Assembly: GCA_017302015.1 (NCBI GenBank)
Contig: JAFLEE010000006.1
Coordinates: forward strand, 1 to 64,000
DNA: 64,000 nt
Origin: Spirochaetota bacterium
GTDB lineage: Bacteria; Spirochaetota; UBA12135; COTS27; JAFLEE01
Direction: 5' to 3'
Positions 41,991 through 60,680 of the stretch are shown in pieces. Under the pieces are notes generated by a model. The model was not told the DNA's origin, made no database searches, and saw nothing but the letters and a program-made list of their open reading frames with translations. Position 1 is the stretch's first letter. Each line of letters starts with the position of its first letter. The position numbers and the translations under genes are program-made.

Positions 41991-42108
41991 AGGGCATCGA
42001 CTTCGATCTTCCGTCGTCGCCCAGGCCCGCTCCGAAGAGCCTTGGCTTTGTTCCATATGAAAATGGGGGGATGATCCGCCTTGTCACGACGTTTCCCCCG
42101 TGGGTCCA

Positions 42109-43206
42109 ATGAAGATCCTCGCCGCTTCCGATTTCCATCTGGGGATGAAGTTCCGCCATTATCCCGAGGTTTCCGATCGCCTCATCGCCGCCCGGTTCAC
42201 GGCCCTGGAGAAACTCGTGGAGGCGGGGAATCGGGAGGGCTGCGACCTCTTCATCCTCGCCGGCGATCTTTTCGACACGACCAGCGTGCCCAAGGCCACG
42301 GTGCTGAAGGCGCGCGCCATCCTCGACCGCTTCGCCGGAAAATTGGTGGCGGTGCTCCCTGGCAACCACGATTTTTACGTCCCCCAGGGGAAGGACCTTT
42401 GGGAGACTTTCATCGGCGAGGGCCGGGGCAATGTGCTGGTGCTCACGGAAGGCGCTCCGGTGCCCTTGGCCGCCGACTGGCAACTCGATGCCTGCCTCTA
42501 TCCCGCCCCGTGCTTCGCCAAGCATTCCCAGGCGAACGGGCTCGCCTGGATGGCGGCGGCGCCCCGGCCCGCGTGCGCGATCCACATCGGCGTGGCCCAC
42601 GGGAGCGTGGAGGGGATCTCGCCCGATATGGATGGGCGCTATTACCCCATGACGCGCGGCGAGATCGACCGCCTCGGTATGGATGCGATGTTCATCGGGC
42701 ATACCCACGCGCAACGGGTGGAGGGGACCCTCTTCATTCCCGGCACCCCCGAACCCGATGGCTTCGATTGCGCCCACGACGGGGCGGGGCTCCTCGTCGA
42801 ACTACAGCGGGGGAAGGCGCCCAGGGCGACCCCGGTGCCCAGCGGCACCTATACCTGGCGCCACGAAACGCATCTCCTTTCCGAGGCATCGGCGGTGGAC
42901 CGCCTTCAGGAAAAACTATCCCAGCCGGCCTACCACACGCGCCTATTGAAATTGCGCCTCGAGGGGCGCCTCGCCGCCGACGCGTTCCAAAAAACGCGCG
43001 AATGGGGGGCCGTGCTCCGCGAAAAGTGCTTCCACCTGGCTTCGTTCGAGAACCAGATCGGGCTGCTCATCGGAAAGGCCGACATCGATGCCCGGTACGC
43101 GCCCGGATCCTTCGCCCATGAACTCTTGACGGAACTCGCCCGGGCTCCCGAAGATGTCCCGGCGCTGCAGAAGGCATGGGATCACTTGGGCGGGGGGCGT
43201 CCGTGA
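42109..43206 (+). CDS. SbcD/Mre11-family metallophosphoesterase (YhaO-like nuclease subunit)
   Basis: MKILAASDFHLG, GDLFD and GNHD calcineurin-like phosphoesterase motifs. Confidence 0.75.
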   Translation: MKILAASDFHLGMKFRHYPEVSDRLIAARFTALEKLVEAGNREGCDLFILAGDLFDTTSVPKATVLKARAILDRFAGKLVAVLPGNHDFYVPQGKDLWETFIGEGRGNVLVLTEGAPVPLAADWQLDACLYPAPCFAKHSQANGLAWMAAAPRPACAIHIGVAHGSVEGISPDMDGRYYPMTRGEIDRLGMDAMFIGHTHAQRVEGTLFIPGTPEPDGFDCAHDGAGLLVELQRGKAPRATPVPSGTYTWRHETHLLSEASAVDRLQEKLSQPAYHTRLLKLRLEGRLAADAFQKTREWGAVLREKCFHLASFENQIGLLIGKADIDARYAPGSFAHELLTELARAPEDVPALQKAWDHLGGGRP

Positions 43207-45629
43207 GATTGGAGCGCATCCGCCTCGAGCCCTTCGGCGCCTTCGGGAACCGGGAACTCGCGTTTTCCCCCGGGCTCCAGGTCGTGCTGGGCCCCAACGA
43301 GGCGGGTAAATCGACCTTTTGGAACGCGCTCTACGAAGTCTTATTCCGTCCCGTCCTCATCGACAAACGGAAAACGGCGGACCGCGAGGCGGTGGCGCGC
43401 TTCCTTCCCATCGGGAGCGGAAACCATTCCCGCGTCTCCCTCGCCTTTTCGATCGGCGGGGATTCCTGGGTCCTGGAAAAGCAATGGCAAACGGGGGCAA
43501 AAGCCGCGCTGACCCAAGCCGGGGGCGCGGCCCTGATCGGGGACGAAGAGGTGCGGGAGAAACTCCAGGCCCTCTTCCCCGTGACGCCGGCGGTGCTCCA
43601 AACGGTGCTCCTCTCCAGGCAGGGTCAACTCTCCCGCACGCTCGAGGAGGTCAAGGCCGGACCGGCGCTCGGAACGCTCTCCGACCTGCTGCGGGCATCC
43701 CTCCAGGATCCCGGCGGCGTTTCGGTGGACGCCTTCATGAAGGAGCTCGAGGCGGAGCATGAAAACGCCCTCCTGAATTGGGACTTGGCCGCAAGCGGCC
43801 CCAAAGACGGGAAACTTCTCTCGAATCGCCGCAAGGTGAACTTGGGCGCGGTGCTCAAGGCCTATTACGCGGAGCAGGAAGCGTCCCTCGCCGTGGCGGA
43901 AGCGGAAGCCTTCGAGAGCCGGCTCGATCTACTCAACGGCGAGAGGCGCACCGCCCAGGAGGCCTTCGACCGCAACCAGCGTTTTTTGGACGAGAACGGG
44001 CCCCTGGAAAAAGGCGCGCGTTCCCGCAGAGAATTGGAAGTGGAATGTTTGGATGGACGGCGGGTCCTCGAGGAACTCACCGCCGTCTGCGACGATTGGC
44101 CCGTCCGCAAGAGCGAAATCCAACGATTGGAGGCGGCCTTGCCCGCGCTCCACGCTCAGGTCTCCCGTCTGGCGGAGGAACTCGACCGGGCGAAACGGGG
44201 GGAGGAAACCCGGCCACTTCGCGAGCTCCTGAAGCGCGCCCGTCCCGAATGGGTCCACTTGGGGGAACTTCGGGAATCCTCGCGCCGTATGAAGGCCGTT
44301 TCGAAGGCGGAGGTGGAGGCCCTGCGCCGAACGGAAGACCAGGCGAAGCGCGGCCGTCTCGCGGTGGAAGCCGGGCAGATGCAGATCGCCTTCCTCGCCC
44401 GCACAGCCCAAAAACTCGGGGTGATCCGGGACGGGTCCGCGGAAGAAGCGCGCGAGGTCGCGGCGGGATCCGCGTTGAAGACGGCCGCGGTGGCGAGCCT
44501 GCGCCTCGAACATCCCGACTGGTCCCTCTCCATCGGTTCCGGATCCGCCGATGCCAAGGCGCTCCTCGACCGGCTGAGCGATGCGGAAGCCGCCCTGGGC
44601 GCGGCCCTGGCGAAGCTCGGCGTGGCGAGTTTGGAGGAGGCGGCGTCCCTGGAGGCCGCCTCCCACGCGGCCCAGATCGCATTCGAGAAGCAGCAGGGCA
44701 AACTCGAGGCGCTGCTGGCGGGCAAGGACTTCGAAGAACTCGAGGCGAAACTCGCGCTGGCTCCCCCCGAGGAAAGCTTCCGCCCGGTCGCGGATCTCGC
44801 CGTGGAGAAAAGCAGGGCGGAATCCGCCGTCGCCCAGGCCGAGACGGCCAAAAAGGAGGCGGAGGAGAAGATCGCGGCCTACCAGTCGAAGTACGGCGAA
44901 CGGACGGGGCTCTACCACCGCGTCGGGGAGGCGACCAAGAAGGTGGCCGATCTCCAGGCGGAACTCGATGCCCTTCCCTCCCTCCCGGAAGGGATCAAAG
45001 ACCCAAAGGCTTTCCTCGACGAAATGGACCGCGCCCGGGAACGATCCCGGGGCCTGCAGGCCGAGGTGTCACGCTTGGAAATTGAGCGCGCGGCCCACAT
45101 CGGGTCCATCGAGCGCAGCTCGGCGGATGAACTGCGGGCCGAACATCGCGAGGCCGCGGAGGCCTTCCGATCATGCCTGACGGAGGCCCGCGTGCTCGAT
45201 CGCATCCTCGCCGCGGCCCGGGCCGTGAAGGAGCGGGGGGCCTCCCGCCCCCTCGACGGGCTCCAGGCGACGTTCCAGGAATACCTCGCGACGATGACCC
45301 GGGGAAATTACAGCGCCACGGCGGTCGAGGAAGGCCTCCCCACGGGAGTGCGCCGCGGCGACGGCGAAGTCCTCCCCTACGAACTCCTCTCCGCGGGCAC
45401 CCAGGATCAATTCGCCCTAGGCCTGCGCCTCGCCATGGCCCATTATTTTTTGGAGGGCAAAGAGGCCTTCCTGGTGATGGACGATCCCCTCGTCGACATG
45501 GATCCCGAGCGCCAGAAGGGCGCGGCCGCGGCGCTTCGGGCCTTCGCCGAGCGCCAGCAACTCATCGTCTTTACCTGCCATCCTTCCCACGCGGATCTCT
45601 TCGGCGGGCGAAGGATCGAACTCGCCTGA
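43203..45629 (+). CDS. SbcC/Rad50-like AAA ATPase with long coiled coil (YhaN-like)
   Basis: GTG start overlapping the upstream TGA. The N-terminus reads VRLERIRLEPFGAFGNRELAFSPGLQVVLGPNEAGKST (Walker A). A ~500-aa coiled coil follows. The C-terminus reads LSAGTQDQFALGLRLA...AFLVMDDPLVDMD (signature/Walker B/D-loop). Confidence 0.7.
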   Translation: MRLERIRLEPFGAFGNRELAFSPGLQVVLGPNEAGKSTFWNALYEVLFRPVLIDKRKTADREAVARFLPIGSGNHSRVSLAFSIGGDSWVLEKQWQTGAKAALTQAGGAALIGDEEVREKLQALFPVTPAVLQTVLLSRQGQLSRTLEEVKAGPALGTLSDLLRASLQDPGGVSVDAFMKELEAEHENALLNWDLAASGPKDGKLLSNRRKVNLGAVLKAYYAEQEASLAVAEAEAFESRLDLLNGERRTAQEAFDRNQRFLDENGPLEKGARSRRELEVECLDGRRVLEELTAVCDDWPVRKSEIQRLEAALPALHAQVSRLAEELDRAKRGEETRPLRELLKRARPEWVHLGELRESSRRMKAVSKAEVEALRRTEDQAKRGRLAVEAGQMQIAFLARTAQKLGVIRDGSAEEAREVAAGSALKTAAVASLRLEHPDWSLSIGSGSADAKALLDRLSDAEAALGAALAKLGVASLEEAASLEAASHAAQIAFEKQQGKLEALLAGKDFEELEAKLALAPPEESFRPVADLAVEKSRAESAVAQAETAKKEAEEKIAAYQSKYGERTGLYHRVGEATKKVADLQAELDALPSLPEGIKDPKAFLDEMDRARERSRGLQAEVSRLEIERAAHIGSIERSSADELRAEHREAAEAFRSCLTEARVLDRILAAARAVKERGASRPLDGLQATFQEYLATMTRGNYSATAVEEGLPTGVRRGDGEVLPYELLSAGTQDQFALGLRLAMAHYFLEGKEAFLVMDDPLVDMDPERQKGAAAALRAFAERQQLIVFTCHPSHADLFGGRRIELA

Positions 45630-49933: not shown

Positions 49934-50034
49934 AAGGGTGCTTCCTTTGCTGGTTTATTTGTGAAGCGATAAATGAGTATGCTTCAAAACAACAGGGTTA
50001 ACAATAGGACAAATCTGAAAAAGGTGGTATATTT
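49934..50034. promoter_or_regulatory. AT-rich divergent promoter region between the isomerase/oxidoreductase operon and its AraC regulator
   Basis: A 100-bp stretch (…TTTATTTGTGAAGCGATAAATGAGTATGCTTCAAAACAACAGGGTTAACAATAGGACAAATC…) of unusually low GC between two divergently oriented start codons. Confidence 0.45.
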
Positions 50035-50841
50035 TTGATCATGGAATCCCTCCCGTGCCTATTCCTCGATTGGGCGAAGCGTCGGCCATCCCTGGAGCAG
50101 ATCCACCGGGATAAGCGGTTTCCCGGCCATGAATACGCGTATAACGACCCCAATTGCCTGGCTATCATCCTCCACGATTGGGCGGGCGACGTCTGGCTCG
50201 ACGGGCGACACCATGCCCTAGCGCGTAGGACGGTGAGTCTCGTGCCGGTGGGGGTGCGTCGGGTGTTCCGCCCGCGGGAGGCGGGTTGGCATCGGGTGGT
50301 CAATTTCGCCGGCCTCCATGTCACGGAGCCGGTGTTCCTGGCCTTGGGCCCCGACTTCGACCGCCTCTGCCGGATCTACGACGAGAGCCTCTCCTGTTTC
50401 GGCTCCGAGCGGTCGCGCGCCGAACTCAAGGCATGGGAACTGCTCTGGGAACTCGCGGATGTGGCGGACCTCGGGGAAGGCGCGGGGGCGTCTTCGCACC
50501 TCGTGCGCCGGGTCCTCGGTGCCATCTCCCTGCGGCTATCGCAAGAGATCACGGTCGGGGGCCTGGCGAAGGAACTCGGGGTGTCCCACGCCCACCTCTG
50601 CCGGATCTTCCGCCGGGAACTCGGCATTTCCGTGGTCGCACATCTGCGCAACCGGCGCATGGACCTCGCGCGCCATCTGCTGACGCGCACCACCCAGCCG
50701 GTGCGCGAGGTGGCCGCGGTCTGCGGCATCCCCGATGCCCAGCATTTCAATAAGACCGTGCGCCGCAGTTTCGGCTGTTCGCCAAGCGCCTTGAGGCGTC
50801 GCGCTTTTCCGGCGCAAGGTGGCGCGGAAACGGTGACTTGA
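50035..50841 (+). CDS. AraC family transcriptional regulator
   Basis: C-terminal AraC HTH (…GGLAKELGVSHAHLCRIFRRELGISVVAHLRNRRMDLARHLLTRTTQPVREVAAVCGIPDAQHFNKTVRRSFGCSPS…). Confidence 0.8.
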   Translation: MIMESLPCLFLDWAKRRPSLEQIHRDKRFPGHEYAYNDPNCLAIILHDWAGDVWLDGRHHALARRTVSLVPVGVRRVFRPREAGWHRVVNFAGLHVTEPVFLALGPDFDRLCRIYDESLSCFGSERSRAELKAWELLWELADVADLGEGAGASSHLVRRVLGAISLRLSQEITVGGLAKELGVSHAHLCRIFRRELGISVVAHLRNRRMDLARHLLTRTTQPVREVAAVCGIPDAQHFNKTVRRSFGCSPSALRRRAFPAQGGAETVT

Positions 50842-51101
50842 AGCGAAAGGCTGTGGGCCACAGCGACCCATGGGAAAATAGCCCATGCCGATGGGGTCGA
50901 AAGGGATTCCAACCACGATCCGAGGCTAGGGACGGATGCGGAGGGTTGCCCCCTGAAGGCGCAATAGCCTCTCGAGTCGTCGAGCCCAGGCGAACGCTTC
51001 GGCGTTTTTGCATCGCGGCCGTCGGCCCCAAGTATCGCGGCGGGAACGGCCCATCCCATTCCCATCGTCCCGAGTTCTCCAAGAAAGGTAGGTGACCCTC
51101 C

Positions 51102-51554
51102 ATGACCACGGCGCAACATGATCCGTCGCTCCTCTTTCCCCCGTCCGTGGAGATCCGGAACTCGCCCATCGAGGGCCGCGGCGTCTTCGCGCGGGCGCGC
51201 ATCGCCGCCGGGGTGAGGCTCTTGGAATACACCGGGGAGGTCATCCTCTGGGCCGATGCGGCCCAGGACGAGGAGCACTTCTACGATTTCGAATTGGACG
51301 AGTCCCGCGTCCTGCGACCCCGGGAGAACGAGTGCACGGCGATGTATGTGAACCATTCCTGCGATCCCAATTGCGAGACCCACCAGGAGGGCGACCGCCT
51401 CTTCTACGAGACCCTCCGGGAGATCGCCCCGGGGGAGGAGCTCTCCGTCAATTATTTCGTTCAGATCGAGGGGGCGACCCTCGAGGAAGGGCTGCGGGAT
51501 TACGCCTGCCGCTGCGGTTCCCCGGCGTGCAAGGGGACGATGCTCGACGTCTGA
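51102..51554 (+). CDS. SET domain protein (putative protein-lysine methyltransferase)
   Basis: 150 aa with the core SET motifs GRGVFA, ELDESRVL and NHSCDPNC, plus a post-SET Cys cluster CRCGSPACKG. Confidence 0.8.
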   Translation: MTTAQHDPSLLFPPSVEIRNSPIEGRGVFARARIAAGVRLLEYTGEVILWADAAQDEEHFYDFELDESRVLRPRENECTAMYVNHSCDPNCETHQEGDRLFYETLREIAPGEELSVNYFVQIEGATLEEGLRDYACRCGSPACKGTMLDV

Positions 51555-51570
51555 GGGCCCCGGGGACCGC

Positions 51571-52359
51571 CTAGTCCGTCTCCCCGATGATCGAGTTCAT
51601 GAAGCGCTCGACGCCCGATGCCGCGGGATCCTCGGGGCCGATCTTGGGCAACCATCCCTTCCGCACATCCTCCAAACGGATGCCCTCGACCTTCAGTTTG
51701 GTGCGGATGGCGTTGAAGGGCCGCCCGGTCTGGAGGGCCACCTCTTTCAGCGGGGTTCCCTCGGCCAGGAGGCCCAGGGTGCGGGAGAGTTCTTCCGGCG
51801 TCCAGGGCTTCACTTCCGCTACTTTGCGCCGGCGCCCCCCTGCCCCCTTGATGGCGTAGACCTTCTTTTCTTTCGGACCCAACGTCTTGCGCAGTTCCCG
51901 GAGGCGGATGCCTTCCTGGAAGGCCCGCTGGCGCACGGCGGTCGCCTTGCGGCCCAGTTCGGCGGCGACCTCCTGGATGGTCTTCCCGGCCTGGAGGCTT
52001 TCTTTGAGCCGCGCGATTTCATCCGCGCGCCAAGCGTTCTTTCGTTGGGCGCGGTTTTCACGCGTCGCGCTCGGGCCAAATGCCTGCGCATCGGCTTCGT
52101 AGGCGCTCTTCAATGCCCGGATTTGCTCCGACATCCTGGCTTCGACCGCCCGGACGCGGGCCTGGGAGAGGGTTTGGATCTGCTTCTCTTCCTCTTCGAT
52201 GGTGAGGAGGAGTCCCTCGAGGGCCCGGGTGAGTTTGGAGACGCCCGCCTCTAATTTGAGGAGGCTTTTGCGCGTTCGGGCGGCGTTCAATTTGGATCTT
52301 CGAGGCAAAGGAGAACTCCTGGGCGCATGGTCAGGTTCGGGGTCGAAGCCGGGGCGCAT
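51571..52359 (-). CDS. Hypothetical DNA-binding protein with two GcrA-like (WT.EE...G....IA..LG....NAV..K...LG) HTH repeats
   Basis: The regions NAWRADEIARLKESLQAGKTIQEVAAELGRKATAVRQRAFQEGIRL and KPWTPEELSRTLGLLAEGTPLKEVALQTGRPFNAIRTKLKVEGIRL both follow the GcrA N-terminal DNA-binding pattern. The N-terminus is coiled-coil. Local GC is lower than in surrounding genes. Confidence 0.45.
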   Translation of the reverse strand: MRPGFDPEPDHAPRSSPLPRRSKLNAARTRKSLLKLEAGVSKLTRALEGLLLTIEEEEKQIQTLSQARVRAVEARMSEQIRALKSAYEADAQAFGPSATRENRAQRKNAWRADEIARLKESLQAGKTIQEVAAELGRKATAVRQRAFQEGIRLRELRKTLGPKEKKVYAIKGAGGRRRKVAEVKPWTPEELSRTLGLLAEGTPLKEVALQTGRPFNAIRTKLKVEGIRLEDVRKGWLPKIGPEDPAASGVERFMNSIIGETD

Positions 52360-52646
52360 CGCTCAAATTTTCACGGCGCCCATTGATAAAACTACGTTTG
52401 TGCCACATTTCTGGGCGTGGGTTAGGGGCGCAGGTCCTCCTAAGCATTCTTGTGCGCAGCCAAAACGGGGGCAGAAGAGCCCGGGCGTATCGAGACGGTA
52501 CGAAGTGCAGCTACAAAGAATCTACGCCATCTTCGAAATTATAATCTGAAGCAGGAAGGAAGGAAATCCGCGCCCAACAGGTCCGGGTGGCTCCGGTTCG
52601 ATCGGCCCGCGGAGCTTCCCCGCCCCGCAGGCGCGGGAGGGGCCGC

Positions 52647-54209
52647 TCAACGGTACGTCAGCCTGCAATGGGGGAACTTTTCCCGGATCGCGTCGGCCCC
52701 GGCGCGGGTGACCGAGGTCTCGATCAGCGTCATTTCTTCCATCTTGGCGGCGCGGAGCAGGAAATCCTTGATGCCGCCATCGGTGATGCCGGGGCAATTG
52801 CTGAAGAAGAAGTGCGGTTGCACGGCGAAGAAGGGCGCCACATTCGTCAAAAAATGGTCGGTGACCAAACCGCTGGTGACGCCGAAGAAGCGGAGGCCCG
52901 GATGGTTGGTGCAAAGGTAGAGGTAGGAGGCATCGGTGACCGCCGTGCCGAAGAACTCGATGCGCGGTGCCTGGGGGCGCTGGAGGCCCGCCTTCATGTG
53001 GCGGTTGGAAACCTCCGCGCCGAAGACGCGCAAGACGTCGTTGGATTCCATGCGCACGATGCATTGGGGCTGGAGGCTTCGGATGCGCTGGAGGGCCGCG
53101 GGGGAAAGGGGGTTCTCCGAGAGGTCGAGTTCGGAAAATCGCGCCGGCACCAGGCCGAGGATCGTGGCGAGGCAATCGCCGAGGAGGTTGCCGTCGAGAA
53201 CCAAGGTGCGGAGGCCGGGGTTCGCCCACAGGGCGGATGGGACTCCCTCGCAGGTGAGGAGGCACTCGTTGACCCCATTGCCGGAGCGCTTGAGGGTTTC
53301 CAGCCGGTTCAAGGATGCCACGCCGAGGGCGAAGGAGCGGTCGGAGGTGAACGTGCGCGAGAAGTCGAGGTAGCGCAGGTCCTTGTTCCGGGCGGTGACC
53401 GCGAGGATGACCGCATCGGAGAGATGGGCGCATTGGCTGAGATCGAGGGCGACGAGCTTCGTGTGGTTCTGGAGCCCGCCCAAGAAGCCCGCTTCGGAAA
53501 TCGCGGCGCCCGCGTGGAGGTCGAGTGCGGCGAGGTTGGTCATGCGCGCCAAGAGTTCGAGGGCGAAACGGTCGGTCAATCGGGCGTTACGCAGGCGGAA
53601 GGCCCGCAGGGTTTCCGGCGAGGGAATGGCGGCGAGGAGTTCCTCGTCGCCGAAGGGGCGATCGCCCAGGTCGACGTATTGGAGTTCGCCGCGGTCGAGG
53701 AAGGTCTTGGCGAGGTAGGCCGCGCTGTCCAGGGCGTTGAGGTCCTGGGCGGCCTTGCAGGCCTCGAGTTCCCGCGCGAGGCTCCCCGCGGACGCGGCCA
53801 GCGCGTCGAGCGTGGGCGCCGACCGCTCGGCGCGGGCGACCGTTTTCCCGGATTCCGCCTCGAGGAGCCGGGCGGCGAATTGGAAGGCGCCGTTCGACCG
53901 GGACAGGCTGGCTTGGAGGACGAAATTGGCCCCCATGAGTCTCCCGAAATAGGGCGCCCGGGAGGACGCCGGCGCGTTCGATGCGCGGTCCTCCAGGGAC
54001 CGCCACAGGGGTTCGAAGCCCCCACGGGGGTCCAGGGGCCGTATTTTATTTCCGGAAAGGAACTCCCCGCGCAAGCCCTCGCGGAACACGGACGCCTGGG
54101 CCCCGGGAAGATCCGCGGTGGATTGGATCCAGAGGATGGCCGAGGCATTTTGGCCGAAGGCGGCGGCGATGCAGAACGCCATCCCCATCGCGGTGCTTTT
54201 TGAGAACAT
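52647..54209 (-). CDS. Secreted leucine-rich repeat (LRR) protein
   Basis: Signal peptide MFSKSTAMGMAFCIAAAFG from ATG 54209. The central region has repeated L..L.L..C..L.D... units (…LAALDLHAGAAISEAGF…LVALDLSQCAHLSDAVI…LRYLDFSRT…LRTLVLDGNLLGD…LDLSENPLS…). Confidence 0.55.
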   Translation of the reverse strand: MFSKSTAMGMAFCIAAAFGQNASAILWIQSTADLPGAQASVFREGLRGEFLSGNKIRPLDPRGGFEPLWRSLEDRASNAPASSRAPYFGRLMGANFVLQASLSRSNGAFQFAARLLEAESGKTVARAERSAPTLDALAASAGSLARELEACKAAQDLNALDSAAYLAKTFLDRGELQYVDLGDRPFGDEELLAAIPSPETLRAFRLRNARLTDRFALELLARMTNLAALDLHAGAAISEAGFLGGLQNHTKLVALDLSQCAHLSDAVILAVTARNKDLRYLDFSRTFTSDRSFALGVASLNRLETLKRSGNGVNECLLTCEGVPSALWANPGLRTLVLDGNLLGDCLATILGLVPARFSELDLSENPLSPAALQRIRSLQPQCIVRMESNDVLRVFGAEVSNRHMKAGLQRPQAPRIEFFGTAVTDASYLYLCTNHPGLRFFGVTSGLVTDHFLTNVAPFFAVQPHFFFSNCPGITDGGIKDFLLRAAKMEEMTLIETSVTRAGADAIREKFPHCRLTYR

Positions 54210-54445
54210 CAGGTCGGATCCTTCGGTGGAATCGCCGCGTCTCGCCAAAAAGAGGTTGGGAAATTGTACGATGGCGGAATAGACCGGCTCCCTGGGGATG
54301 GGGAACCGCTTTCCGCGGCCTCGGACACGATTTCCGCGAAGACGAATCAACGCTTCCCGCGAAGGCCAGAAATTGACAGCGGGGCCGGTGGACCGTATGC
54401 TCTCCAGCGGGCCCGATCCGGGTGGAATCCCCAGGAATGATCTAG

Positions 54446-54973
54446 ATGAAAAACAGAATGAGTCTGACGACCTTCTCGCTCTTTTCCCTTCTTTTTTTCG
54501 CGTCAGCGGATTACCTGGTCGCCGGCGACTATTCCAAGGCCTACGAATACCTCCAGAAGGACCCCAAGAAGCACGAGGCCGAATTGCGCCTGATCCTCCC
54601 GACCCTCGATCCGGGGGATCGGATGGCCCTGTACGGTTTCGCCCAAAAAGATATCCTCCCGGGTTATCTGGTGAATTGGCTCCTCGGGTTGGGCATCGGT
54701 TCCTTCATGCAGGGCGACCCACTGGGCGGCGCCATCGGCTTGACGGGCGACCTCCTCTCCGTGGGCGCGATGGCGACCGGTGTCGCGCTCCTCACGCCCC
54801 CCTACGGCGGCGGAAATTTGACGGCGGCGGCGGTCTGCGCCAGCGCCGGCTTGGTGGTCTACCTCGTCTCCAAGGTCTACCAGATGTTCCGCCCGATCTA
54901 TTTCGTGCAGCGCTATAATGACCAATTGGCCAGGTTCCTCCTCAGCGAGGGAAAATTCCAATGGCGATTCTGA
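54446..54973 (+). CDS. Hypothetical membrane protein
   Basis: 175 aa with an N-terminal signal/TM and three further hydrophobic Gly-rich segments. AT-rich 5' end. Confidence 0.45.
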   Translation: MKNRMSLTTFSLFSLLFFASADYLVAGDYSKAYEYLQKDPKKHEAELRLILPTLDPGDRMALYGFAQKDILPGYLVNWLLGLGIGSFMQGDPLGGAIGLTGDLLSVGAMATGVALLTPPYGGGNLTAAAVCASAGLVVYLVSKVYQMFRPIYFVQRYNDQLARFLLSEGKFQWRF

Positions 54974-55052
54974 GGGCGCCATCCGCCGCGCTCGGGGACG
55001 AGCGCTCGTGCCGCCGCGGAAAGTCGCGCCGAAGCCATCGAGGAGGTCCGGC

Positions 55053-55211
55053 ATGCTCGGGGAAAAGCTTCTAAAATCGGGGATCATCACCCAGGCCCAA
55101 TTGGAGGAATGCCTCGCGGAGCAAGCGGCCTCCGGGAAGCGGATCGGGGAACTCCTCGTGGCCAAGGGCTACGCGACCCAAGCCCAGATAGATGCGGCGC
55201 TGGCGAAATAG
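55053..55211 (+). CDS. Minimal stand-alone MshEN-type (T2SS-E N-terminal, c-di-GMP-binding-like) domain protein
   Basis: 52 aa: MLGEKLLKSGIITQAQLEECLAEQ-AASGK-RIGELLVAKGYATQAQIDAALAK. This is two copies of the 24-residue (R/K)LGxxLLxxGhhxxxxLxxxLxxQ motif separated by a 5-residue spacer. A perfect AGGAGG RBS lies 7 nt upstream of the ATG. Confidence 0.55.
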   Translation: MLGEKLLKSGIITQAQLEECLAEQAASGKRIGELLVAKGYATQAQIDAALAK

Positions 55212-55214
55212 CCT

Positions 55215-55838
55215 TCAGCCCGCGATGCGGCAGAGGCAATAGATGAAGGCTTGTAGGGTTCCCGACGGCGTCTGGTGGGCCTCGCGCTGGGATTCCACCA
55301 GGCGGAACTCCGGACCGAATTCCCGGTGGGGCGCGTCGGGTTCATAGCGCATGACGGGCAGGCCGGAGCATTTGGCCGGGCCGTCCCCGGCGAAGGTCGC
55401 CACCAAGACGTAGCCGCCGGCGCGCACGGAGCGCGCGACTTGGGCGACGTAGCGCCGACGGTCCCCCTCGCTGGTGAGGAAGTGGAAGACGGCCCGGTCG
55501 TGCCAGACGTCGAAGGCATCGGCGGAAAGATCGGCTTCCAGGATATCCGCGCATCACCATTTCACGTCCTCGACCCGGTGCGCCAAGCGCGCCCGTGAGA
55601 CCGTGAGCGCCTCGTCCGCGAGGTCGAGAACGGTCAGGTCCGTGAACCCGGCCGCGGGGAGGCTGTCGACCCCCGTCGAAGCGCCCGCGCCCACATCGAT
55701 GACTGCGGCACGGGGCGAAGGGGCCACCCTGCGGATCAAGTCGAGGGGGAGGCGCGCTTCGGGCTGGTACCAACTGACTTCATCGGCTTTTTTGTGTTGG
55801 TAGACGCCTTGCCAATGCTTCGCTTGCTCGCCGGACAT
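55215..55838 (-). pseudogene. Class I SAM-dependent methyltransferase interrupted by an in-frame TGA
   Basis: A single frame encodes ...VIDVGAGASTGVDSLPAAGFTDLTVLDLADEALTVSRARLAHRVEDVKW-[TGA at 55554-55556]-CADILEADLSADAFDVWHDRAVFHFLTSEGDRRRYVAQVARSVRAGGYVLVATF... This is a continuous MTase fold (motif I DVGAGAS, motif II/III). The stop falls where the MTase fold continues uninterrupted. Confidence 0.6.
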
Positions 55839-60096: not shown

Positions 60097-60137
60097 GGTT
60101 ATGGAAAACATGCCCCCGGGAATCCGGGGACGTTTCG

Positions 60138-60449
60138 TCAGTAACGACCGCCGCGATCGCCGCCGCCGAAACCGCCGCGGTCACGACCGCCGCCGCCACC
60201 GCCGCCCGTCTTCGGTTGGCTTTCGTTGATGCGAAGAGCGCGACCGCCGACTTCCTTGCCGTTGAGGCCGGCAATGGCTTTCTCGCCTTCTTCACGGTTC
60301 GCCATTTCGACGAAACCGAAACCGCGCGATTGGTTGGTGAACTTGTCGACCACGATTTTGGCCGAGGTCACCGTTCCGAATTGAGAAAACTCGGAACGAA
60401 GGGATTCTTCGGTGGCCGAGTAGGCGAGGTTGCCCACGTAGATATTCAT
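60138..60449 (-). CDS. Glycine-rich RNA-binding protein (single RRM)
   Basis: MNIYVGNLAYSATEESL (RNP-2), RGFGFVEM (RNP-1), C-terminal GGGGGGGRDRGGFGGGDRGGRY tail. Confidence 0.9.
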   Translation of the reverse strand: MNIYVGNLAYSATEESLRSEFSQFGTVTSAKIVVDKFTNQSRGFGFVEMANREEGEKAIAGLNGKEVGGRALRINESQPKTGGGGGGGRDRGGFGGGDRGGRY

Positions 60450-60680
60450 GCGAACTCCAAGAGAGAGATTTTGATCGGAAGAGGGTGATACTTGACCAGG
60501 ACGAGAAGTTGTTCGACTCTACGTGGTTAAGGCAGACTCCGCCTTTCTAGAAGGAATTGTTGCATGAAACGGGGAACCCTGCCAAAAAAAGGCGCGATTT
60601 CCTGGATGGACGGGTTTTTTTTAGGTTTTCCACCTGGAATCGTTTGAAAAAGGCGTAAAAATCCACGGATCTTGCCGAAT

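Follow-up and report, generated by a model that had tools for sequence, protein, structure and literature searches.

A SET-domain gene, a tandem helix-turn-helix gene and a leucine-rich repeat gene in a Spirochaetota contig: native composition and probable chance adjacency

Results

The three genes and their arrangement

We analyzed a stretch of 64,000 nucleotides (hereafter, the window) from contig JAFLEE010000006.1 of a Spirochaetota bacterium (assembly GCA_017302015.1), with a focus on positions 50842-54445, where three consecutive genes encode a SET-domain protein, a protein with two helix-turn-helix (HTH) repeats and a leucine-rich repeat (LRR) protein. A first-pass annotation made from the sequence had read these genes as an acquired module of eukaryote-like proteins. 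The results below favor an account in which the genes are native to the chromosome and are probably neighbors by chance.

The three open reading frames (ORFs) were found exactly at the positions given by the first-pass annotation. The SET gene (51102-51554, + strand) encodes 150 amino acids comprising a SET and a post-SET domain. The HTH gene lies on the - strand; its longest ORF begins with an ATG at 52359 (51571-52359, 262 amino acids), and with its likely TTG start it covers 51571..52308 and encodes 245 amino acids. The LRR gene, also on the - strand, spans 52647..54209 (520 amino acids) when the NCBI start is used, within an ORF that is open to 54350. Identical proteins carry the NCBI locus tags J0L75_03095 and J0L75_03100, on a 112-kb contig of a metagenome-assembled genome with 66% GC.

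The SET and HTH genes are convergent and only 16 bp separate the two stop codons, and the LRR and HTH genes share one strand and are 338 bp apart (LRR stop to HTH start, 52309..52646), with a hairpin rich in guanine and cytosine (GC), read from the sequence, located directly 3ʹ of the LRR stop codon. Separate transcription of the three genes is therefore plausible. The gap between the LRR and HTH genes contains a TATAAT hexamer at 52538-52543 (- strand), a putative promoter element that was not called by a consensus scan.

Base composition and signs of mobile DNA

The composition of the region is native and shows no anomaly. The first-pass annotation had described a patch of lower GC content; however, the GC content of 50842-54445 was 64.7% compared to a window mean of 66.5%, which corresponds to the 9th percentile among windows of the same length, and its tetranucleotide distance from the window was exceeded by 22% of windows. 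The GC content at third codon positions (GC3) was 0.87, 0.79, and 0.84 for the SET, HTH, and LRR genes, respectively, against 0.843±0.052 for 45 window genes called from the period-3 GC pattern, and the corresponding z-scores of gene GC content were -0.5, -0.8, and -0.2. The two intergenic stretches that had been singled out as AT-rich were ordinary as well: the gap between the upstream AraC-family gene and the SET gene (50842..51101) had 62.7% GC and the stretch at 52360-52646 had 59.2%, both inside the range of 63.0±7.7% for the 23 intergenic gaps of the window. Two other gaps lie below both of these values, namely a divergent gap of 101 bp between a TIM-barrel gene and the AraC gene (49934-50034, 35.6% GC), by far the most AT-rich spot of the window, and a gap of 569 bp at 60112-60680 (55.5% GC).

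Signs of mobile DNA were not seen either. There were no tRNA genes in the 64-kb window, and no integrase or transposase Pfam families among the genes scanned between 40 and 63 kb. Flanking direct repeats were not noted either, although no search was aimed at them.

Linkage of the three genes in other genomes

The SET, HTH, and LRR genes were adjacent in none of 10 homologue neighborhoods, four of HTH homologues and six of SET homologues. The neighbors of the four HTH homologues comprised a gene for a large uncharacterized protein, a U32 peptidase gene together with a GDSL lipase gene, a phage integrase gene and a gene for a protein lacking a Pfam match, with no SET or LRR gene in any of the four. 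The six distinct SET neighborhoods all differed (phosphoribosyltransferase and PfkB; PAP2; PALP; SDR and DUF2721; cytochrome c and MFS; a locus of Pedosphaera), and none of the six held an HTH or LRR gene. When all 94 collected loci were searched by tblastn, no partner genes were detected. Using the FabF gene of the window as an anchor, we found that the nearest FabF among 185,579 species representatives was 48% identical, and that none of 80 FabF-anchored loci shared a neighborhood with the window.

One locus deserves a separate remark. In a metagenome-assembled genome (MAG) of Pedosphaera (Verrucomicrobiota; L008, 10001-13974), a small SET gene is likewise located downstream of FabF, at a distance of 2.3 kb, and the two genes are oriented to each other as they are in the window. 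The intervening genes differ from those of the window and include, judged by eye, a probable thymidine phosphorylase gene. As this likeness was seen in one of 80 loci, it is probably a coincidence.

The SET protein

The SET protein scored 70.6 bits against Pfam SET (PF00856; E 1.7e-19; cut-off 22.4) and contains both NHSCDPNC and CRCGSPACKG, so that the SET domain with a post-SET cysteine cluster recognized by the first-pass annotation was borne out. Its best solved structure was the SET domain of MLL1 (E 2e-15), in an alignment that spans SET-N to the post-SET CxCx4C cluster, and weaker Protein Data Bank (PDB) matches were obtained with the SET domains of MLL2, SET1, and NSD. The motifs GxGVFA, EYxG, NHSCxPNC, GEELxxxY, and CxCGxxxCxG were invariant over 20 homologues, and all are present in the SET protein. 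At the level of single residues, the positions for binding of S-adenosylmethionine (SAM) and catalysis (G25, G27, V28, F29, and A30; N84, H85, C87, P89, N90, and C91; G111, E113, L114, and Y118) were invariant in the 20 homologues and aligned with the MLL1 motifs, and the cysteines of the post-SET zinc cluster, C136, C138, and C143 (CRCGSPAC) together with C87 of NHSC, were likewise invariant in the homologue alignment. On these residues the protein is predicted to be catalytically competent; it would use SAM to methylate lysines on protein substrates.

A search at E<=1e-3 gave at least 1,378 homologues, most of which stand alone and are 145-190 amino acids long, with source names that include Chthoniobacterales, Kiritimatiellaeota, Dehalococcoidia, and Betaproteobacteria. 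Hundreds of bacterial homologues were 40-51% identical, and none above 51% was found outside this genome. SET genes are known from free-living and environmental bacteria (PMC3980110), and together with the number of homologues this contradicts the earlier suggestion that the domains of the region are rare in free-living bacteria, at least for SET. No signal peptide was found on inspection of the N-terminus, and the 150 residues hold no domain beyond SET and post-SET. An effector architecture like that of the secreted nucleomodulins NUE, RomA/LegAS4, and BtSET was not found: the NCBIfam model T4SS_AnkI/LegAS4 gave 16 bits against a cut-off of 550 bits, over the SET core only. The protein is most likely a cytoplasmic member of a widespread family of small (about 150-170 amino acids) bacterial SET/post-SET proteins.

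Like cpnSET of Chlamydia pneumoniae, NUE of C. trachomatis and Go1-SET of Methanosarcina mazei, the SET protein combines a SET core with a post-SET CxCx4C zinc cluster and has all SAM-binding and catalytic motifs. Its size of ~150 amino acids and its single-domain architecture are those of hundreds of bacterial homologues. Unlike the effector SET proteins NUE, RomA, and LegAS4, it has no secretion signal, nuclear localization signal or ankyrin repeats. The enzyme cpnSET methylates chlamydial Hc1, and Go1-SET methylates archaeal MC1-alpha (PMC3980110); by analogy with these two pairs, the target of the SET protein would most likely be an endogenous basic or DNA-associated protein.

The HTH protein

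An AGGAG sequence is located 7 nt upstream of the TTG at 52308, and in an alignment with the four full-length homologues this TTG coincides with their initial Met (three begin with MAR and one with MIR); it is therefore the likely start, giving 245 amino acids, compared to 239 in the NCBI call. The 245-residue protein contains 51 Lys and Arg (22 Lys and 29 Arg) and 32 Asp and Glu, with no Cys and no His. In the following, residue positions use the numbering of the 262-residue ORF. An AlphaFold2 (AF2) model had a mean predicted local distance difference test (pLDDT) score of 68.7, and its folded parts reached 80-90. It shows a long N-terminal alpha-helix (residues 21-93; 52081..52299, - strand) and two bundles of three helices at 112-148 and 188-224. 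The bundles belong to repeat 1 (residues 108-161; 51877..52038, - strand; helices 112-123, 128-135, and 139-148) and repeat 2 (residues 184-237; 51649..51810, - strand; helices 188-199, 204-211, and 215-224), which are joined by a disordered, basic linker (residues 159-183) containing GGRRRK. After repeat 2, only ~25 residues of low confidence follow.

The long N-terminal helix is probably an oligomerization or coiled-coil element, and a test for coiled-coil heptads in it gave p 0.09. The protein most likely inserts at least two recognition helices into DNA and works either as a regulator of transcription or as a nucleoid-associated protein; the long helix would probably serve oligomerization, and the two HTH units are connected by the flexible basic linker.

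The first-pass annotation had described a tandem GcrA-like DNA-binding protein of a methylation-reading type. The two HTH repeats of ~54 amino acids were confirmed, and the relation to GcrA held in part. GcrA consists of a DNA-binding domain (DBD), a linker and a domain that interacts with region 2 of sigma-70, built on a CCCH zinc finger (C118, C133, C143, and H146) (PMC5887438). With Pfam PF07750 and the PDB entries 5YIU, 5YIX, and 7YE1 as the GcrA reference, the HTH protein did not match Pfam GcrA even at E<=10, and the repeats gave only sub-threshold matches to generic HTH families in Pfam. When the HTH family profile was searched against solved structures, no GcrA chain was matched at E<=10 and the only match was the tandem-HTH protein Cbp1 (2LVS, E 3.5e-4). 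The full-length homologue P0127 reached 19.6 bits against Pfam GcrA, below the cut-off of 26.9. Failure against GcrA models, which the first-pass annotation had offered as grounds to abandon its assignment, was thus seen formally with Pfam and the PDB search, whereas profile-profile alignment still supports a likeness at the level of the DBD: nine HTH repeat units align in register, and in hhalign the 9-unit profile reached a probability of 95% with two GcrA DBDs as the target and 89% with residues 1-54 of Caulobacter GcrA alone, whereas two control sequences, a Myb repeat and sigma-70 region 4, gave 7% and 5%, respectively. The alignments support repeats that are GcrA-DBD-type three-helix units, at the fold or domain level only.

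Beyond this domain, the resemblance to GcrA ends. The HTH protein has two DBD-like units instead of one and an additional long N-terminal helix, and it lacks the linker and the sigma-interaction domain; a CCCH zinc finger is impossible because there is no Cys or His. From its architecture, it does not look like a GcrA-type activator tethered to sigma-70, and we conclude that it is not one. GcrA reads N6-methyladenine (m6A) through R33, N34, I37, and G38 (PMC5887438). In the hhalign register, these positions are A, T, R, and Q in unit 1 of the HTH protein; in unit 2, read by extending the unit-1 register through the repeat alignment, they are F, N, R, and T, so that N34 alone is kept, and in unit 2 only. 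Because the residues of the m6A pocket are not conserved, nothing in the sequence points to methylation reading, and the HTH protein is not a demonstrated reader of methylated DNA. A binder of the methylation-reading type, as in the first-pass annotation, is thus not supported. Other tandem or bipartite HTH binders, namely Cbp1 (a CRISPR-repeat-binding protein of Sulfolobus, PDB 2LVS), the DNA-binding domain of Tc3 transposase and Myb repeats, showed a weak generic likeness to the HTH protein and are without its N-terminal long helix. A Foldseek search with the HTH protein gave no match at E<=0.001.

The architecture of the HTH protein is rare. When 5.8 billion clusters were searched with a word index, the protein itself and a single relative were the only hits, and two scans of metagenome contigs found no homologues. 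With the HTH family profile, HMMER matched 440 proteins when 1.84 billion cluster representatives were searched exhaustively, and the full architecture was present in only five of the 1.84 billion, that is, the HTH protein itself, P0002, P0125, P0126 (with one repeat), and P0127. The other matches were tandem arrays of an HTH unit of ~50 residues, with up to nine matched stretches, and one relative, P0131, consists of three HTH units fused to a complete GcrA. When 102 proteins were scanned, 59 passed Pfam GcrA at 1e-5, a number comparable to those for Sigma70_r4_2 (62) and HTH_23 (59). Both these GcrA matches and the P0131 fusion add to the case for a GcrA-DBD-type unit.

The relatives P0128-P0272, a large set of metagenomic proteins, are themselves tandem arrays of the GcrA-DBD-like unit with the pattern W-x2-E...EIA..LGR...AVR.RA..LG, for example P0129 (668 amino acids, 8 units) and P0147 (791 amino acids, 9 units). 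The contig of P0127 comes from the run SRR13786856, and its accession is two away from that of SRR13786854, a run holding a contig identical to the SET locus of the window.

The LRR protein

The 520-residue LRR protein, which the first-pass annotation had called secreted, has a Sec-type signal peptide by eye (residues 1-24; 54138-54209, - strand). The N-terminus reads MFSKSTAMGMAFCIAAAFGQNASA up to the putative cleavage site, which is followed by I; it is composed of MFSK, a hydrophobic core of 12 residues and QNASA before the I, in agreement with the -3/-1 rule as judged by eye. The protein thus appears to be Sec-exported, and an export signal is found in many bacterial LRR proteins. The signal peptide is followed by a helical N-domain of ~150 residues that matches no family.

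The putative repeats are degenerate and of the F-box type, with a first block at residues 176-383 (53061-53684, - strand) and a second at about 415-520, in total roughly 8+4 repeats of 25-26 residues with the form LxxLDLSxCxxLSDxxL; residues 176-383 parse into eight units of 25-30 residues. The protein scored 17.1 bits against Pfam LRR_4, below the cut-off of 27, and 14 bits against LRR_Zer-1. A regular expression of the strict LRR consensus found two units only, no more than in shuffled sequences. The best PDB match was FBXL2 (E 2.9e-4, in three stretches), and hydrophobic periodicity peaked at lags of 25-26 residues with a z-score of about 2.7, a signal that is not present in the N-terminal domain. 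The description as an LRR protein with a signal-peptide-like N-terminus is thus probable, with scores against Pfam LRR models below threshold. Searching the 5.8 billion clusters, we found the NCBI copy and one weak relative, also an LRR protein (E 5e-4), to which BLASTP gave alignments in several repeat registers.

The form of the repeats is shared with FBXL2 and SKP2, cysteine-containing F-box LRR proteins, and the LRR protein differs from these in having no F-box. Matches to the Leptospira LRR proteins LIC12759 and LIC11098 were not significant (E 0.14-0.41). A single-sequence AF2 model was unusable, with a pLDDT of 35.8. The repeats would offer a surface to which other proteins bind, be it in the periplasm, at the cell surface or extracellularly.

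Surrounding genes and other observations in the window

The SET gene is preceded by a gene for an AraC-family regulator (50035-50841, + strand). On the other side, a gene for a P13-like membrane protein of 175 amino acids (54446-54973, + strand) is divergent from the LRR gene. It matches the Borrelia P13 porin family in Pfam (E 2e-12) and reached 48 bits with NCBIfam P13_porin, under the cut-off of 100 bits; this Borrelia-like neighbor agrees with the label "Spirochaetes bacterium" that NCBI gives to the MAG. At its 3ʹ end, the P13-like gene overlaps a small ORF (54918-55211, + strand) with no significant Pfam match, the C-terminal half of which resembles by eye a repeated helical motif of GspE/MshE N-terminal domains (GIITQAQLEECLAEQ...GYATQAQIDAALAK). 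Further on, a gene like those for class-I SAM-methyltransferases (55215-55838, - strand) lies in two frames with a break near 55555, where one frame ends in ...VEDVKW* and the other continues with ADILEADLSADAFDVWHDRAVFHF...; the frameshift indicates that the gene is a pseudogene or that the assembly contains an error here.

The other genes around the region encode Gfo/Idh/MocA, two xylose-isomerase-like TIM barrels, SbcCD-like proteins, an FGE-sulfatase, FabF and a GDSL-lipase-like protein. The SbcD-like (Metallophos) and SbcC-like (AAA_23/SMC_N) pair (42100-45629, + strand) is located upstream of sugar-metabolism genes and is ordinary chromosomal content. A defense system was considered and rejected, as the only PADLOC match, LeoBC, was not significant with 14.8 bits. 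Riboswitches and other structured RNAs were also considered for the gaps beside the SET and HTH genes and rejected: no Rfam family matched in the window, including both gaps flagged as AT-rich, and fold z-scores against shuffled sequences were +0.73 (50842-51101) and +0.26 (52309-52646).

The motif GANTC occurred 164 times in the window compared to ~341 expected from the dinucleotide content (ratio 0.48). Depletion of GANTC as a signal of CcrM/GcrA-type methylation or of restriction was rejected, as the non-palindromic words GANTG (0.35), CTNTG (0.45), and CANTC (0.50) were similarly depleted (observed/expected). GANTC is thus not specially depleted, and the effect is therefore one of overall sequence composition.

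Discussion

The region at 50842-54445 holds three genes of ordinary composition that were neighbors in none of the 10 homologue neighborhoods compared, and for this reason we favor, with a probability of roughly 70%, the explanation that they are independently functioning, compositionally native chromosomal genes whose adjacency is due to chance. Several points weigh against this explanation. Each of the three genes is confined to certain lineages or patchily distributed, and the comparison included only 10 homologue neighborhoods, many of them on short contigs. The genes may have been acquired long ago and ameliorated since, and the closest FabF relative is only 48% identical. The co-occurrence of three domain types that are often called "eukaryote-like" is mildly suggestive, and the HTH protein, in which 51 of 245 residues are Lys or Arg, is a chemically plausible substrate for the SET enzyme.

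The module proposed by the first-pass annotation would have arrived jointly by horizontal transfer, as a lower-GC island whose eukaryote-like proteins act on a host or remodel the nucleoid. Its attraction is that the SET domain is closest to the histone methyltransferases MLL and NSD and the LRRs to F-box LRR proteins, that the HTH and LRR proteins are nearly without homologues, and that the region lies slightly under the window mean in GC content. Against this, the values for gene GC content, GC3, and tetranucleotides all lie inside the normal range of the window, tRNA, integrase, and transposase genes were absent from the parts searched, and the genes occurred together in none of the homologue neighborhoods. 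Moreover, the closest relatives of the SET protein are small bacterial proteins in housekeeping contexts rather than eukaryotic ones, and it carries no signal peptide, ankyrin repeats or other features of the LegAS4 type. We consider a joint arrival improbable. Slightly less so, though still unlikely, is a reading in which the SET and LRR genes are native and only the HTH gene stems from mobile DNA, either as the remnant or cargo of such an element or as a prophage-type regulator. GcrA-DBD-like proteins are known from phages; PHROG 323, annotated 'transcriptional regulator', matched the HTH repeats in two stretches (E 4e-16); the homologue P0127 stands divergent beside a phage-integrase-family gene (L004, 102-2182); and the family is extremely sparse, on contigs of 48-66% GC. 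However, tblastn against 50,697 phage genomes gave no match, a scan of IMG/VR viral contigs found none, no phage or integrase genes lie nearby in the window, the GC3 of the HTH gene lies no further than one standard deviation from the window mean, and three of the four homologue contexts have no mobile genes. The phage link of the HTH protein is therefore weak.

A further alternative is a functional pair of SET and HTH proteins. By analogy with cpnSET and Hc1 and with Go1-SET and MC1-alpha, the SET enzyme might methylate the basic HTH protein and so tune its binding to DNA. The genes are adjacent, tail to tail at close distance, the HTH protein is rich in basic residues (22 Lys, 29 Arg) and has a linker that is disordered and basic, and there is precedent for prokaryotic SET enzymes that methylate DNA-associated proteins of their own cell (PMC3980110). 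But convergent genes are not co-transcribed, a SET gene neighbored none of the four HTH homologues and an HTH-family gene none of the six SET homologues, and thousands of SET homologues face five members with the HTH architecture; with so many more SET homologues, the SET protein cannot generally depend on an HTH partner. Such a pair is very unlikely in our estimation. The fuller version, in which the two form a methyl-lysine writer and its substrate that tune nucleoid or promoter binding, with the HTH protein as founder of an undescribed GcrA-DBD-related class of nucleoid-associated proteins, appears fainter by a shade.

Under the favored explanation of chance adjacency, the region gives an uncultured bacterium a further SET methyltransferase of the small bacterial kind, an apparently exported LRR protein that is an orphan and a rare DNA binder with several HTH units, and the rare HTH architecture is its sole slightly unusual item. 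The case also advises caution: where "eukaryote-like" domains cluster in an environmental genome, composition and synteny should be checked before the cluster is read as a host-interaction island. If the SET enzyme did methylate the HTH protein, the two would provide a tractable bacterial model for the control of a DNA-binding protein by lysine methylation. Finally, the likeness of the repeats suggests that the GcrA DBD fold serves as a repeat unit outside GcrA, with two copies in the HTH protein and up to nine in remote relatives, arrays whose biology is, as far as we found, undescribed in the literature.

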